From UHGV virus genome UHGV-0324485: a stretch of DNA of 20,782 nt; one strand, 5' to 3'. The notes beneath the pieces are model-generated. The model was given only the letters and a program-made list of their open reading frames with translations, ran no database searches and was not told the DNA's origin. Both the position numbers and the translations under genes were made by a program. Below are positions 2,042 to 18,202 of the stretch, piece after piece. The stretch's first letter is position 1. Each line of letters opens with the position of its first letter. This DNA is from a virus.

Positions 2042-3410
2042 TCCGGCTTTACGTAGTTTCTGGACTACGCGGGCACGTAACAAAGTGCTTTATGGTGGCC
2101 GGTCATCGTCAAAATCATGGGATGCCGCTGGCATTGCCATATTTCTGTCGAATAAATACACCCTGCGTTTTTGTTGTGCCCGTCAGATCCAGAATAAAAT
2201 CGAAGAGTCGGTGTATACCCTGCTCAAAATTCAGATAGACAGGTTTGGCCTGCGGCACCGTTTCCGGATTCTGAACAACAAAATCATTAACCGGGTTACT
2301 GGCTCGGAATTTGTTTTTTATGGATTATGGCGCAACATCGAAGAAATTAAGTCACTGGAGGGGATCGACGTGTTGTGGCTGGAAGAAGCCCACGCACTGA
2401 CTGAATACCAGTGGAAAATTCTGGAGCCAACGATCCGTAAAGAGGGTTCGGAATGCTGGTTCATATTCAACCCCGGACTTGTTACTGATTTCGTCTGGCG
2501 TAACTTCGTTGTTGATCCGCCTGAAGGCACTCTCATCCGCAAAATTAACTATGACGAAAATCCGTTTCTGTCTGACACCATGCTTAAGGTTATCGACGCG
2601 GCGCGACGCCGTGATCCTGATGGTTTTAAACATGTGTATGAGGGCGTTCCGGAGTCTGATGATGATGCGGCAATCATCAAACTGTCCTGGATAGAAGCCG
2701 CAGTGGATGCGCACAAAACGTTAAATTTCGAACCCAGTGGAAGAAAGCGTATTGGCTTTGACGTGGCTGACAGTGGTACAGATAAGTGCGCTAACGTTTA
2801 CCGTCACGGTTCCGTTGTTTTCTGGGCCGACGAATGGAAGGCCAAAGAAGATGAATTACTGAAGAGCTGCCAGCGTACTTATCAGTCGGCGCTGGAGCGT
2901 GAAGCAGATATTGTTTACGACTCTATCGGTGTTGGTGCGTCTGCCGGTGCTAAATTCTCTGAAATTAACGCTGACCGGAAGAGCGAGAATGCATACGCGC
3001 GACGTGTGAATTACCAGAGGTTTAACGCCGGCGCTGGTGTGCATGAACCAGATGACGAATACAACGGCATCCCCAACAAAGACTTTTTCGCAAATCTTAA
3101 GGCTCAGGCATGGTGGCTGGTGGCTGACCGTTTCAGAAATACGTTTAACGCCATTAACAACGGAGAACAGTATCCTGTGGATGAGCTGATCAGCATAGAT
3201 TCTCGTTGTCCGTTGCTTGAAAAGCTGAAACTGGAACTGACAACACCTCATCGTGATTTCGACCGTAACGGACGTGTGATGGTCGAAAGTAAAAAAGACC
3301 TCGCAAAACGCGAGATACCGTCACCAAACGTTGCTGACGCATTCATTATGGCCTTCGCGCCAATTGATACATCGCTGGATATCTGGGAACAGCTGGGGAG
3401 ACAGGCCTGA
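2007..3410 (+). CDS. Terminase large subunit (PBSX/Terminase_3-like ATPase-nuclease)
   Basis: Walker A-like GGRSSSKS near the N-terminus and a long C-terminal nuclease-like region. Start set at ATG 2007 (GGAGAG about 11 nt upstream), overlapping the small-subunit 3' end; the track ORF begins at 1899 and the true start is uncertain. Confidence 0.8.
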   Translation: MTSILTSKPTLNPALRSFWTTRARNKVLYGGRSSSKSWDAAGIAIFLSNKYTLRFCCARQIQNKIEESVYTLLKIQIDRFGLRHRFRILNNKIINRVTGSEFVFYGLWRNIEEIKSLEGIDVLWLEEAHALTEYQWKILEPTIRKEGSECWFIFNPGLVTDFVWRNFVVDPPEGTLIRKINYDENPFLSDTMLKVIDAARRRDPDGFKHVYEGVPESDDDAAIIKLSWIEAAVDAHKTLNFEPSGRKRIGFDVADSGTDKCANVYRHGSVVFWADEWKAKEDELLKSCQRTYQSALEREADIVYDSIGVGASAGAKFSEINADRKSENAYARRVNYQRFNAGAGVHEPDDEYNGIPNKDFFANLKAQAWWLVADRFRNTFNAINNGEQYPVDELISIDSRCPLLEKLKLELTTPHRDFDRNGRVMVESKKDLAKREIPSPNVADAFIMAFAPIDTSLDIWEQLGRQA

Positions 3411-4876: not shown

Positions 4877-5501
4877 CAGTATCACGGAAATTATTGAGGC
4901 GCTGGAACGCTACAGTGAAATCATCACCCCCTGGGCGACAAAGGTCGCGGAAAACTTTACTGCGGACCTAACCCGGCAGAACGAGAAAGTTTGGCGGCAA
5001 CACAGCAAGAACATCAGTCGCGAGCTCCGCAATCTTGTGGAAAGCGCTCCTGTGGGCCAGGTGATGCAATCCATCATCGCCGAACAGGTCAAGTACATCA
5101 AATCGCTCCCCCTCGAGGCGGCTGACAGGGTGTACGACATCCAGAATCGGGCGATAGAAGCTGTTGTGACCGGTGGGAGAGCAGAACATTTTGCTAAAGA
5201 AATAGCCGCATCGGGTGATATAGCAAAGTCCAGAGCTGACCTGATTGCCCGTACTGAACTTGGACGTGCAACCGGCGCGCTGGATCAGGCGCGTGCGCTG
5301 TCAATTGGTTCGAATGGTTATATCTGGCGTACAGCCGAAGATGGTGACGTCAGGCATTCTCATCGGGAAATGGAAGGTAAATTTGTCGAATGGGGCAAAC
5401 CTCCAACGCTTGACGGCATGACCGGTCACGCTGGCGAGCTCCCGAATTGTCGTTGTTATAAAGAAATCGTTTTTCCCACCTCCCAATCTTATCCCGCCTG
5501 A
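4728..5501 (+). CDS. Head morphogenesis protein (Mu F-like / SPP1 gp7 family)
   Basis: GAGGA sits 8 nt upstream of ATG 4728. C-terminal motif ...WRTAEDGDVRHSHREMEGKFVEW... is characteristic of MuF-like minor head proteins. Overlaps the portal ORF by 149 nt. Confidence 0.7.
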   Translation: MPKMKRRPASANLMTNRRNRQAEIRYRTSLRRIARAVGDIVNGRYDGSNDSITEIIEALERYSEIITPWATKVAENFTADLTRQNEKVWRQHSKNISRELRNLVESAPVGQVMQSIIAEQVKYIKSLPLEAADRVYDIQNRAIEAVVTGGRAEHFAKEIAASGDIAKSRADLIARTELGRATGALDQARALSIGSNGYIWRTAEDGDVRHSHREMEGKFVEWGKPPTLDGMTGHAGELPNCRCYKEIVFPTSQSYPA

Positions 5502-15644: not shown

Positions 15645-16679
15645 ATGTCGAAAAACTGGATGCGTCACTTTGAATTATTGCTTGTTGATGATAAGGGCGA
15701 CGGGATAAAAATTTCTGAGCTTAAAGTCACTTTCAATATTCAGAAAATGCCTGCGACCATATTTAATGGATTCGTTGGAAATTTTAAGGTTTATAACCTG
15801 TCTCCTACCACTCAGAACCGGATTATGCAGAAGGAGTTTTCGCGTATACAGGTTATTGCCGGATACAAGGGGCAACCGGATGCAGCAGGTAATTATCCTG
15901 ATGAAAACGTTGGTATGATATTCAATGGAGATATCCGTTTTACTGTCACTGGTAAAGATAATGCCACAGACAGTTGGATCATGTTGCAGTGTATTGACAG
16001 CTGGGAAGGCCACCTGAACGCAAGTGTGAAAACCACAGTGGCAGCTGGCTGGAAGTACAGAGATCTTTTCAGTCTGGGTATGAAATCATTCGAACCATAT
16101 GGCATCGAATCCGGCGCAGTTTCTGACATGCCTGAAACGGTATTTCCCCGGGGTCGCGTTGTTTATCAAAACACATCAAGGTTGATGAATCATATCGCAG
16201 GGCAGTGTAAGGCTAACTGGTGGTATGAAAATAATCTGGTAAATATTGTTCCTGAAGATAAATATATTGGTGTTGCTACGGTGTTGAATGCTAACACCGG
16301 GCTTATCGGTATGCCACAGCAGACGATGGGAGCTGGCGTAAATGTCAGATGTCTGATTAATCCAAATATTAAGCTCGGTGGGCTTATTCGTCTGGATCAG
16401 GCATCTGTATACCGTGCCTCTTTGAGTAATGACCAGGTAGCGAAATCGCCAGCACGACTGGATGAGTCTGAAAGCGACGGTAATCTCTACGTTAACGGTC
16501 TGCCAGGCATGTCACAGCCTGCCAGCATTAATACTGACGGTGATTACATTGTGGGCAGCATTGATTATACTGGCGACACCCGAGGGCAGGCGTGGTATAT
16601 GGACCTGCTTTGCCTGGCTAAAGGTGGCAAAGAACTATTGGCAAAAGGCACTTTGGACAAAGTCGGAGATGTAGAGTGA
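15645..16679 (+). CDS. Putative baseplate hub / late-control-D-like tail protein
   Basis: 344-aa ORF with RBS GGAG, upstream of the spike gene; family assignment is weak. A sampled 60-nt stretch is about 40% GC. Confidence 0.35.
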   Translation: MSKNWMRHFELLLVDDKGDGIKISELKVTFNIQKMPATIFNGFVGNFKVYNLSPTTQNRIMQKEFSRIQVIAGYKGQPDAAGNYPDENVGMIFNGDIRFTVTGKDNATDSWIMLQCIDSWEGHLNASVKTTVAAGWKYRDLFSLGMKSFEPYGIESGAVSDMPETVFPRGRVVYQNTSRLMNHIAGQCKANWWYENNLVNIVPEDKYIGVATVLNANTGLIGMPQQTMGAGVNVRCLINPNIKLGGLIRLDQASVYRASLSNDQVAKSPARLDESESDGNLYVNGLPGMSQPASINTDGDYIVGSIDYTGDTRGQAWYMDLLCLAKGGKELLAKGTLDKVGDVE

Positions 16680-17011
16680 AAAAAGTATTTTTTTGTTTAT
16701 TCTTGGCCCTGCCGTTAACAGTTTCGGCGGCAACGCAGTGCGGACCATTCCGCTTTGATGCTGGTAATGATGGCCTCATGCACATCAATGGTCAAAAGCC
16801 AGAAACACAAAAAATGACCTTTTTGAAACAAAAAGACGATTTCGATAATGTCATGATGCAATGGATGTTACCTGATCCTAATACTGGACGTTGGTTAGGT
16901 ATGGACTACATCAAACGAAACAAAAAAGCGATCCTCAACGTTGAAGTTATCCGCAAAAATATGGACGAGCCTCGGGAGTTCTGGACGTATGATTGCCGGA
17001 AGGTGAAGTGA
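16676..17011 (+). CDS. Small secreted protein (111 aa) with cleavable signal peptide; accessory (moron) gene
   Basis: GTG start overlapping the upstream TGA (GTGA) with GGAG 7 nt upstream. N-terminus MKKVFFCLFLALPLTVSA|ATQ and two Cys in the mature part (C22, C107); AT-rich. Confidence 0.5.
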   Translation: MKKVFFCLFLALPLTVSAATQCGPFRFDAGNDGLMHINGQKPETQKMTFLKQKDDFDNVMMQWMLPDPNTGRWLGMDYIKRNKKAILNVEVIRKNMDEPREFWTYDCRKVK

Positions 17012-17085
17012 ATTACATTGGCGTCCAGCTTCTGCAGAACAGCATGGATGCACCGAAAATCATCGGTTCCTTTCCATGCAAAAAG

Positions 17086-17113
17086 ATTGTTGATTAATCA
17101 CTCGTAATTATAA
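17086..17113 (+). promoter_or_regulatory. Candidate sigma70 promoter (-35 TTGTTG/TTGATT, -10 TATAAT at 17108-17113)
   Basis: TATAAT hexamer lies about 38 nt upstream of ATG 17151, with TTG-containing -35 candidates 13-16 nt upstream of it. Spacing is not ideal. Confidence 0.35.
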
Positions 17114-17150
17114 TGTGATACTTCTACTTTCACGATAAGGAATTTGTCAC

Positions 17151-17390
17151 ATGTTCGGATTTGATAAATTAATAACTCCAAAAATCATCAACGTTCTGTA
17201 TGGCATCACAATGTTACTTCTGGTTGTTGCCGCCATTATAACGTTTGTTAATGGGAAGGCTGCTGGCGCTTTAGTGCTTTTGTTATGTGCTGTATTTTGC
17301 CGAATATTCTTTGAGTGCATCATGGTTTCATTTAAAAACAATGAGTATCTTCGCCGAATAGCTGAAGCGTTAGAAGCAAACAAGCAGTAA
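17151..17390 (+). CDS. Small membrane protein (79 aa, two predicted TM helices, C-terminal amphipathic tail); accessory (moron) gene
   Basis: RBS AAGGA about 10 nt upstream. Hydrophobic stretches ITMLLLVVAAIITFV and ALVLLLCAVFCRIFFECIMV; a sampled 60-nt stretch is about 32% GC. Confidence 0.55.
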   Translation: MFGFDKLITPKIINVLYGITMLLLVVAAIITFVNGKAAGALVLLLCAVFCRIFFECIMVSFKNNEYLRRIAEALEANKQ

Positions 17391-17408
17391 TGAAACTTCA
17401 ATAATGAA

Positions 17409-17430
17409 CCCGCCACCCGGCGGGTTTTTT
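17409..17430 (+). terminator. Rho-independent terminator (CCCGCC-ACCC-GGCGGG followed by TTTTTT)
   Basis: 6-bp GC stem, 4-nt loop and a 6-T run 19 nt after the stop of the small membrane protein gene. Confidence 0.7.
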
Positions 17431-17449
17431 ACTTTCTGGAGACATATGA

Positions 17450-18202
17450 ATGCCCGTTTCTTTAAGCGCTCAACTTGGTAGCAAAGAACAGGCCGATGTA
17501 AGACTTGCTGGCTCTGTCATGTCGGCGCTGCGTGTTTCTATGCCCGGCATCGTCCAGTCATTTGATCCGGACACGGTAACAGTGGTTGTTCAACCTGCGA
17601 TTAAAGGCTATGAGCCGGACTCAAATGGAATCAACCAGTCGACGACATTACCCCTGCTGGTGGATGTACCAGTGGTATTCCCGCGCGGCGGAGGCTGTAC
17701 GTTGACTTTTCCGGTAAAAGCCGGGGATGAGTGTCTTGTCGTTTTTGCCGATCGTTGTATTGATTTCTGGTGGCAGAGTGGCGGGATACAGGAGCCGGTC
17801 GATGACAGAATGCATGATTTATCGGATGCGTTTTGTATTGTCGGTCCCCAGTCGCAGGCGAGGAAGATTAGCGGTATTAATACCAGTGCCACACAGTTGC
17901 GTAGTGACGACGGCAGCACCTATTTTGAGCTTAATCCTGACACCAGGAAAATTAAAATTGTCGCTCCGGGTGGTCTTGATGTGGTTGCCCCTCTGGCTGA
18001 TTTTTCTGAGAAAGTAACCATTCATGGCCTGTTAACCTGGATGGGGGGCATGGTGGGGTCTGTTGTTTCTGGTGTGGCTTCAAAAATCACTGGTGCTGTT
18101 GAGTTCTTGGGGAGCGTTAAGGCTAACGGCAAGCCAATCGATGATACGCACACTCATGGCGGTGTTCAGCGCGGTGGAAGCAATACCGATGGGGTAAACT
18201 GA
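17450..18202 (+). CDS. Baseplate central spike protein (Mu gp45 / P2 gpV-like)
   Basis: 250 aa, RBS GGAGA. C-terminal HTHGG motif and Gly-rich beta-like repeats typical of gpV-family spikes. Confidence 0.6.
   Translation: MPVSLSAQLGSKEQADVRLAGSVMSALRVSMPGIVQSFDPDTVTVVVQPAIKGYEPDSNGINQSTTLPLLVDVPVVFPRGGGCTLTFPVKAGDECLVVFADRCIDFWWQSGGIQEPVDDRMHDLSDAFCIVGPQSQARKISGINTSATQLRSDDGSTYFELNPDTRKIKIVAPGGLDVVAPLADFSEKVTIHGLLTWMGGMVGSVVSGVASKITGAVEFLGSVKANGKPIDDTHTHGGVQRGGSNTDGVN

Follow-up and report, generated by a model that had tools for sequence, protein, structure and literature searches.

A DUF4282 membrane-protein gene in an exchangeable cargo slot of a prophage tail operon, with a possible role in superinfection exclusion

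What does a gene for a small membrane protein do in the middle of a phage tail operon? The locus that raises this question lies in the UHGV virus genome UHGV-0324485, a sequence of 20,782 nucleotides (nt) that was analysed over its whole length and is here called the window. The window represents the late region of a lambdoid Escherichia coli prophage with a contractile tail, and the element in question is an AT-rich unit, upstream of the gene for the membrane-puncturing spike, which encodes a protein of 79 amino acids (aa). The original prediction, made from the letters of the window alone, had described this unit as an accessory insertion with its own promoter and terminator, probably expressed in the lysogen, which may form a two-component system with the neighbouring gene for a secreted protein of 111 aa. 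Comparison with related prophages showed a cargo hotspot at this site, filled here by a low-GC accessory cassette with a DUF4282 gene that spreads by horizontal exchange. Superinfection exclusion is put forward, tentatively, as its function.

The cassette occupies a slot between the gene for the small secreted protein and the spike gene. Among 5426 complete E. coli genome sequences, a related hub-to-spike region was present in 304 and the core of the cassette (17085–17405) in 86 (about 1.6 %), with 84 of the 86 copies at least 99 % identical; carriers included O145:H28, O55:H7 and O111 strains. Thirteen slots of this kind from E. coli, Erwinia and Pectobacterium were inspected, and DUF4282 filled five of them, with the Pectobacterium and Erwinia relatives counted. 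At least eight different cargos fill the slot in related prophages. The alternatives comprised a 190-aa protein together with a YafO-family toxin (Pfam, 4e-17), a DUF2335 membrane protein, three distinct two-gene cassettes in which the second gene matched PADLOC HEPN_IX (one at E 2e-6 and two weakly at about 9e-3), a 151-aa open reading frame (ORF) on the opposite strand, a 170-aa ORF in the isolated phage vB_EcoM-606R2, and a 176-aa protein with hydrophobic, transmembrane-like stretches in strain IAI1 (L022). The claim of an accessory insertion was borne out by this distribution, as the cassette is missing from the slot in most related prophages, which hold other cargo in its place, and is not universal at this position. 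None of the 13 inspected slots was empty. The hub gene of Edwardsiella phage GF-2 runs directly up to the spike gene, with no small ORF. Most of the alternative cargos had no family assignment, and a 'Thioredoxin domain' was rejected as slot cargo because this label belongs to the sheath-initiator gene downstream of the spike.

Homology between the slot variants and the window was limited to two short arms. The left arm (17022–17084/17100) corresponds to the last part of the coding sequence in the small-ORF allele that occurs more often, a 113-aa type; the window has a different allele. The right arm (17404–17441) is made up of the terminator, with an invariant stem and a variable loop, and the ribosome-binding site that serves the spike gene. 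The segment 17022–17097 lies past the stop codon of the 111-aa ORF of the window (which ends at 17011) and aligned at 87–98 % identity with the end of the coding sequence in the 113-aa allele (L002–L005 and L008). The segment is a non-coding relic, the scar of an allele replacement, and serves as the left homology arm, and conserved arms of this kind would let cargos be swapped by homologous recombination.

Exchange of the gene was also seen between backbones. A DUF4282 protein 99–100 % identical to that of the window is encoded by 31 viral contigs in IMG/VR, of which 12 have the window-type backbone and 19 have another backbone, with a hub about 47 % identical and a tape-measure protein about 56 % identical. 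The presence of an identical DUF4282 protein on divergent backbones is clear evidence of recent horizontal exchange, and also speaks against a need for the protein to match its tail. No published description of this hub-to-spike slot was found in a literature search that was not exhaustive.

The features from which the unit was first recognised were all present, namely an AT-rich segment, a TATAAT element, an AAGGA ribosome-binding site, a 79-aa ORF with two hydrophobic helices and a charged C-terminus, and a terminator. Its position between hub and spike was stated correctly on the downstream side, where the spike gene follows, but the 111-aa gene separates the unit from the hub gene. The swappable core, which extends over approximately 17085–17405 and includes the TATAAT, has a GC content of 0.352 (0.303 for 17085–17150), as compared with 0.449 for the hub gene, 0.513 for the spike gene and 0.507 for the whole window. 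Spacing between the surrounding tail genes is −4 to +3 nt, whereas the 79-aa gene is flanked by gaps of 139 and 59 nt. The AAGGA is kept in the cassettes of L025, L026 and L029. An 89-aa ORF on the opposite strand (17147–17416) was discounted, since the Pfam and PHROG matches and the conservation of the protein across genera all concern the plus-strand frame.

The protein, for which an undescribed function had been suspected, is a member of two existing families of which neither has a known function. It scored 42.2 bits with Pfam DUF4282 (PF14110), where the cut-off is 27 (E 1.2e-10; residues 2–71 aligned to profile positions 2–85 of 86) and matched PHROG 12129 at 8e-48, and is already named 'DUF4282 domain-containing protein' in RefSeq (WP_000466689). 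A search of one literature library returned no paper that mentions DUF4282, PF14110, WP_000466689 or phrog_12129. Kyte–Doolittle hydropathy peaked at 2.67 (residues 15–33) and 2.55 (residues 41–59), followed by a charged C-terminal helix. An AlphaFold2 (AF2) model built with 33 homologues, with a predicted local distance difference test (pLDDT) score of 85, gave a helical hairpin (H10–33 and H37–78) in which the second helix continues into the charged C-terminal segment. Hydropathy and model agree with the two-helix integral-membrane core expected of DUF4282. Lysine and arginine residues numbered two in the N-terminal segment, one in the loop and four in the C-terminal segment. Under the positive-inside rule this distribution would place both termini in the cytoplasm and the loop of about six residues in the periplasm.

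Conservation was unevenly distributed over this hairpin. The N-terminal F-x-x-LITPKI, R51, E55 and an invariant FKNNEYL(R)RI were conserved in the 33 Enterobacterales homologues, with conservation values of 0.85 for the N-terminus and 0.93 for the C-terminal helix; R51 and E55 sit in the cytoplasmic half of helix 2. Helix 1, the loop and the half of helix 2 on the periplasmic side were variable. The Enterobacterales subfamily of DUF4282 is marked by its own invariant motif, FKNNEYL(R/K). The protein had no match in NCBIfam, and sequence searches of solved structures returned none for either the 79-aa or the 111-aa protein. A match to YbhQ (19.7 bits, cut-off 27.4) was set aside as noise from transmembrane composition. 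The 79-aa protein matched no tail family and no known tail-assembly factor, a database match that would have counted against the accessory role first proposed.

The transcription signals around the gene were then assigned to the cassette or to the slot. The candidate sigma-70 promoter combines TTGTTG (17087–17092) with a TATAAT (17109–17114) that lies 36 nt 5′ of the ORF and is the sole plus-strand copy in the 20,782 bases. The pattern TTGNNN-N16–18-TATAAT occurred once in the window, both strands included, as against 0.37 occurrences expected from simulated first-order (dinucleotide-frequency) sequences, and the candidate promoter is kept in the cassette alleles L025 and L026, which are 87 % identical. 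The terminator hairpin (17406–17427, with Ts to 17430) has nine pairs, six of them GC, with a dG of −16.7 kcal/mol and a z of −3.9 against shuffles, and is the sole plus-strand hairpin in the window with a T run directly after it. An identical stem with varying loops was found 3′ of every alternative cargo in the slot. This indicates that the terminator belongs to the slot and not to the DUF4282 gene. The autonomy proposed for the unit holds in so far as the signals exist, but the terminator and the left 63–76 nt are properties of the slot and the −35 element is weak. A hairpin with a T run lay 3′ of the DUF4282 gene in all ten contexts examined, while promoter-like elements were clear in some contexts only, those after a tape-measure gene having little or no room for them. 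A scan of 16600–17600 against Rfam found no known RNA element, the only hit being a Phe-leader at chance level (E 0.9).

A DUF1133 protein that is Q-like is encoded 5′ of the window in the identical prophage of strain LWY24 (L001, 922–1476). It passed the Pfam model Phage_antitermQ with 27.5 bits against a threshold of 26 and is a probable late-gene antiterminator. A Q-like antiterminator encoded upstream would explain how the tail operon can accommodate a strong terminator midway.

Whether the adjacent secreted protein is a partner of the DUF4282 protein was judged from the assortment of the two genes. The small secreted-protein family was present at all 13 inspected slots, whatever the cargo. 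An identical DUF4282 gene adjoins at least three alleles of the small ORF, which are 100 %, 60–65 % and 26–35 % identical to that of the window, and alleles of the window subfamily (about 80 % nucleotide identity) adjoin other cargos. The allele found in the window stands next to DUF4282 in 21 of the 86 positive E. coli genome sequences, and DUF4282 occurs without a small-ORF neighbour in Klebsiella, GF-2, Salmonella-type phages and chromosomes. This pattern shows that the 111-aa gene is a fixed feature of the phage lineage and the left border of the slot, and not part of the cassette. The proposed two-component system, in which the 79-aa membrane protein would act with the secreted protein, could draw on the adjacency of the genes and on complementary predicted compartments (a periplasmic beta-barrel and the inner membrane), but it is contradicted by the independent assortment of the two genes and by the occurrence of DUF4282 elsewhere without such a neighbour. 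It is considered highly improbable.

The DUF4282 family is widespread, and its phage-borne members recur at a few positions in tail operons. A profile search at E <= 0.001 recovered 616 DUF4282 representatives (50 % identity), and there were 87 homologous clusters across Enterobacterales, with homologues 45–87 % identical. The equivalent slot holds DUF4282 in Pectobacterium, Erwinia and metagenomic contigs. In Klebsiella prophages, which have non-contractile tails, and in Edwardsiella phage GF-2 the gene lies directly 3′ of the tape-measure gene, and in another group of contractile-tail phages it lies between the genes for the tape measure and the distal tail protein (Dit). Two of these three phage groups have contractile tails. 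The last position was surveyed at 30 loci (L194–L223) seeded with the Dit gene, a choice that is unbiased for DUF4282. DUF4282 was present at 23 of these loci, a divergent DUF4282-like gene at one and other envelope proteins at five, and one locus (L195) was unresolved. The five loci without DUF4282 encoded either a protein of 78 or 93 aa with a single N-terminal hydrophobic segment or a secreted protein of 245–260 aa; L223 carried a secreted protein together with a divergent DUF4282-like gene. A second cargo slot was thereby recognised directly 3′ of the tape-measure gene, at about 2640–3000 in each locus (L194–L223), and its DUF4282 alleles varied widely (40–100 % identity to three query alleles). 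An Arc/Arc-like/Ant module of the immI type was observed 3′ of DUF4282 in GF-2, in the middle of the tail genes (L020, 7408–9316), and is a further accessory insertion at the post-tape-measure junction.

Members of the family were also found outside tail operons. Pantoea prophage remnants carry DUF4282 beside gtrABC. Syntenic chromosomal paralogues unconnected with phages, with 38–47 % identity, were detected by a scan of one genome per species in 25 species of Serratia, ten of Enterobacter/Lelliottia/Leclercia, seven of Escherichia/Pseudocitrobacter and five of Yersinia; in Escherichia/Pseudocitrobacter the paralogue is located between accA and yaeR-tilS. No consistent operon partner was found for the chromosomal copies. 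Four distant members, P0121 (507 aa), P0126 (341 aa), P0134 (551 aa) and P0211 (632 aa), contained five to six tandem DUF4282 units and would be polytopic membrane proteins built of repeated hairpins.

The unit is very probably a moron in a cargo hotspot. By the Juhala/Hendrix definition of a moron, as given in PMC3594210, such an element is extra DNA between genes that are neighbours, or otherwise filled, in related phages, with atypical GC content, its own terminator, its own promoter and expression from the repressed prophage. The first three features were all found, with the terminator owned by the slot. For the promoter, the TATAAT is perfect and unique, but the −35 element matches at three of six positions and the pair is absent from the standard scan. 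Gene product gp15 of HK97 is the nearest functional precedent. It is encoded by a tail-operon moron with its own promoter and terminator (PMC3594210). The small protein resides in the inner membrane and prevents injection of the genome, an effect that depends on the tail and tape-measure genes carried by the infecting phage (PMC3594210; PMC10883804). It has chromosomal YebO homologues, yet is an exclusion protein (PMC3594210). Like HK97 gp15, the cassette in the window consists of a single small gene with a promoter-like element, a terminator and atypical GC content between genes of a tail operon, is found beside tape-measure or tip genes, and has an inner-membrane product with chromosomal homologues in Enterobacterales. 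The two proteins differ in that gp15 has 62 aa and one N-terminal hydrophobic stretch, whereas the 79-aa protein is a two-helix hairpin; moreover, the exclusion phenotype of gp15 has been demonstrated, whereas for the DUF4282 protein such a role is only predicted. The HK97 gp15 moron is reportedly the subject of Juhala et al. 2000 and Cumby et al. 2012.

Other systems share single aspects of the locus. The hotspots of P2 and P4 and the morons of lambdoid phages are fixed positions that hold unrelated cassettes, often toxin-like or defence-like. The slot resembles those of P2 and P4 in being a fixed site, bounded by conserved sequence, with many cassettes in otherwise collinear phages, and differs from these hotspots in lying inside a block of baseplate genes and in having a conserved intrinsic terminator as its right arm. 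T4 Imm and P22 SieA are, like the DUF4282 protein, inner-membrane proteins encoded by phages. Imm, at 83 aa, is close to the 79-aa protein in size and has been described with two transmembrane segments, but differs in coming from a virulent phage and in being expressed early. SieA blocks DNA injection by acting on an ejection or tape-measure-type conduit, and is a protein of 162–164 aa with three transmembrane segments that is encoded outside the tail operon (PMC10883804).

The explanation favoured here as a whole is that the moron protects the lysogen by superinfection exclusion, an account that falls somewhat short of an even judgement. As to the function itself, exclusion at the inner membrane is by analogy with these systems the single most likely one, and is held with more reserve than the account as a whole. 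The 79-aa protein would insert in the inner membrane as a helical hairpin, with its tiny variable loop in the periplasm and with the N-terminal segment, the R51/E55 pair and the FKNNEYLRRI helix at the cytoplasmic face. In the lysogen, transcription would start from the TATAAT promoter of the gene and stop at the terminator, while during lytic growth a Q-antiterminated late transcript would pass the terminator, allowing expression of the downstream spike and baseplate genes. The protein would then act at the envelope to protect the lysogen. Most likely it would stop incoming phages from delivering their genomes at the inner membrane, with a function analogous to that of HK97 gp15, T4 Imm and P22 SieA but no sequence relationship to them.

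A number of results weigh against this explanation. The −35 element is weak and, because it matches at just three of six positions, the candidate promoter is not listed by the standard, stricter sigma-70 scan. In GF-2 and Salmonella-type phages the DUF4282 gene begins 0–9 nt past the tape-measure stop with no clear promoter, and is probably expressed late with the tail genes. The most conserved parts of the protein are predicted to face the cytoplasm and the loop has only about six residues, which would be unexpected for direct contact with a tail tip. Paralogues that sit in core-like contexts (accA-DUF4282-yaeR) point to a membrane function of a general kind. Exclusion at the inner membrane is weakened in particular by this cytoplasmic conserved surface, by the late-looking expression in some phages and by the chromosomal paralogues. 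Comparisons with known systems were negative: gp15/YebO gave no BLASTP alignment and an hhalign probability of 0.2 %, T4 Imm gave an hhalign probability of 0.1 %, and neither the 79-aa nor the 111-aa protein matched PADLOC-DB 2.0 at E <= 1. The AF2 model had no match at E <= 0.001 in the Protein Data Bank (PDB) and viral structure libraries, a fold comparison that is uninformative because a helical hairpin is too simple.

Some of these points suit a different function better. The protein could be a lysogenic-conversion factor and not a defence protein, acting as a small regulator of a host inner-membrane transporter, sensor kinase or protease in the way of MgrB, AcrZ and MgtS, in which case phages would have co-opted the gene from a chromosomal family. 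Such a factor would be in keeping with the syntenic non-phage paralogues, with the concentration of conservation at the cytoplasmic face and with the lack of a consistent operon partner; it is opposed by the recurrence of the gene in tail-operon slots beside tape-measure or spike genes in four phage groups and by the several alternative cargos of toxin–antitoxin or HEPN-like type. Moreover, gp15 acts in exclusion even though homologues of it exist on chromosomes (PMC3594210). Conversion of this kind is regarded as unlikely. The possibility that the gene is a late lytic accessory, co-transcribed with the tail genes and with its main role outside the lysogen, is more doubtful again. A protein of this type might stop progeny phages or free tails from injecting the producer cell, or might tune lysis timing as a two-helix holin or antiholin, and the two-helix topology with both termini inside resembles that of class II holins. 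Its location on the late-operon strand, its abutment on the tape-measure stop in GF-2 and Salmonella-type phages and its presence at 23 of the 30 loci of one phage group are consistent with late expression. However, the gene is absent from most relatives, which carry unrelated cargos instead, its sequence is identical on divergent tails, and a terminator follows it in ten of ten contexts. A lethal holin is further opposed by the stable chromosomal paralogues and by the lack of any match to the holin families of Pfam at E <= 0.1, and the prophage encodes a holin, an endolysin and a spanin in a separate cassette, over 15 kb upstream.

The remaining explanations account for less of the data. Given that the slot also holds toxin-type cargos (YafO and HEPN-like) and that the protein is small, with two membrane helices, it might be an abortive-infection or toxic effector, a hydrophobic protein that depolarises the membrane upon infection; yet its gene comes singly, with neither a sensor nor an antitoxin as a partner, its paralogues stand alone in housekeeping contexts and it has no PADLOC match, and this role is quite improbable. 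A structural or assembly factor of the tail is suggested only by the position in the tail operon and by the recurrence beside tape-measure and spike genes. The gene is missing from part of the lineage, keeps an identical sequence on tails with only 47–56 % identity, encodes two transmembrane helices, matches no tail family and has chromosomal paralogues, so that such a factor is scarcely credible.

Superinfection exclusion, if it is the function here, may extend to the subfamily. In this broader reading, which is possible but doubtful, the DUF4282 proteins with the FKNNEYLRRI motif would be a widespread phage-borne class of genome-delivery blockers, captured repeatedly as morons beside the genes for components that pass through the inner membrane (tape-measure protein, spike). 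Such capture would have taken place in at least four lineages of tails, some contractile and some non-contractile. The invariant motif at the cytoplasmic face would act on a conserved host factor for DNA entry, and the chromosomal paralogues would represent the ancestral host version.

The coordinates of the features are collected in Table 1. The region 15645–18202 was 100 % identical to a prophage of strain LWY24 that is integrated beside pphA/yebV. Gene order there runs from the tape-measure gene (with a lytic transglycosylase domain) through genes for a Dit-like protein, a Pam3-type plug and an E217-type hub to the 111-aa and 79-aa ORFs, followed by the spike, the sheath initiator, baseplate J and wedge genes.

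Table 1. Positions of the DUF4282 cassette, its flanking features, alternative cargos and chromosomal paralogues (positions refer to the window, or to the locus where an L number is given)
Feature	Position	Strand	Basis or remark
Baseplate hub gene, upstream backbone	15645–16679	+	Pfam E217_GP41, 31.5 bits; PHROG 196 'baseplate hub', 8e-80
111-aa secreted-protein gene	16676–17011	+	GTG start overlaps hub stop; left border of slot
Non-coding relic, 3′ end of other small-ORF allele (ending ...VQLLQNSMDAPKIIGSFPCKKIVD, stop)	17022–17097	+	left arm of slot
Candidate sigma-70 promoter, TTGTTG-16 nt-TATAAT	17087–17114	+	unique in window
AAGGA ribosome-binding site	17137–17141	+	9 nt 5′ of ATG; direct reading
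79-aa DUF4282 gene	17151–17390	+	ATG start; Pfam PF14110, PHROG 12129, AF2, hydropathy
Intrinsic terminator, GC-rich hairpin and T run	17406–17433	+	right arm of slot
GGAG ribosome-binding site of spike gene	17438–17441	+	end of conserved right arm
Membrane-puncturing spike gene, downstream backbone	17450–18202	+	Pfam PF18352, 1.3e-44, and GpV Apex motif
Alternative cargo	L002 2745–3735		
Alternative cargo	L003 2904–3476		
Alternative cargo	L004 2697–3849		
Alternative cargo	L006 3032–3487	−	
Alternative cargo	L007 2954–4125		
Alternative cargo	L022 2537–3243		
Alternative cargo	L023 2732–3244		
Alternative cargo	L024 2081–3240		
Chromosomal paralogues	L072–L078, L086, L091 (about 5001–5240); also L081, L061, L106		FKNNEYLRRI motif

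Morons, small exclusion proteins of the membrane encoded by phages and the DUF annotation of the 79-aa protein are already known. What is new here is the detailed layout of the slot, in which both arms are conserved and a terminator forms the right one. Also new are the rejection of a two-gene system, the repeated acquisition of DUF4282 beside tape-measure or spike genes in several tail lineages, and the chromosomal paralogues. The slot is compact and easily recognised, and could be mined for new defence genes borne by prophages. Exclusion, if true, would give a role to a Pfam domain of unknown function and would provide a second, unrelated tail-operon moron of the gp15 type, now in phages with contractile tails, for which injection blocks at the inner membrane appear to have been little studied. 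If the protein is instead a modulator of the host membrane, the cassette would still be a lysogenic-conversion gene carried by about 1.6 % of complete E. coli genomes.

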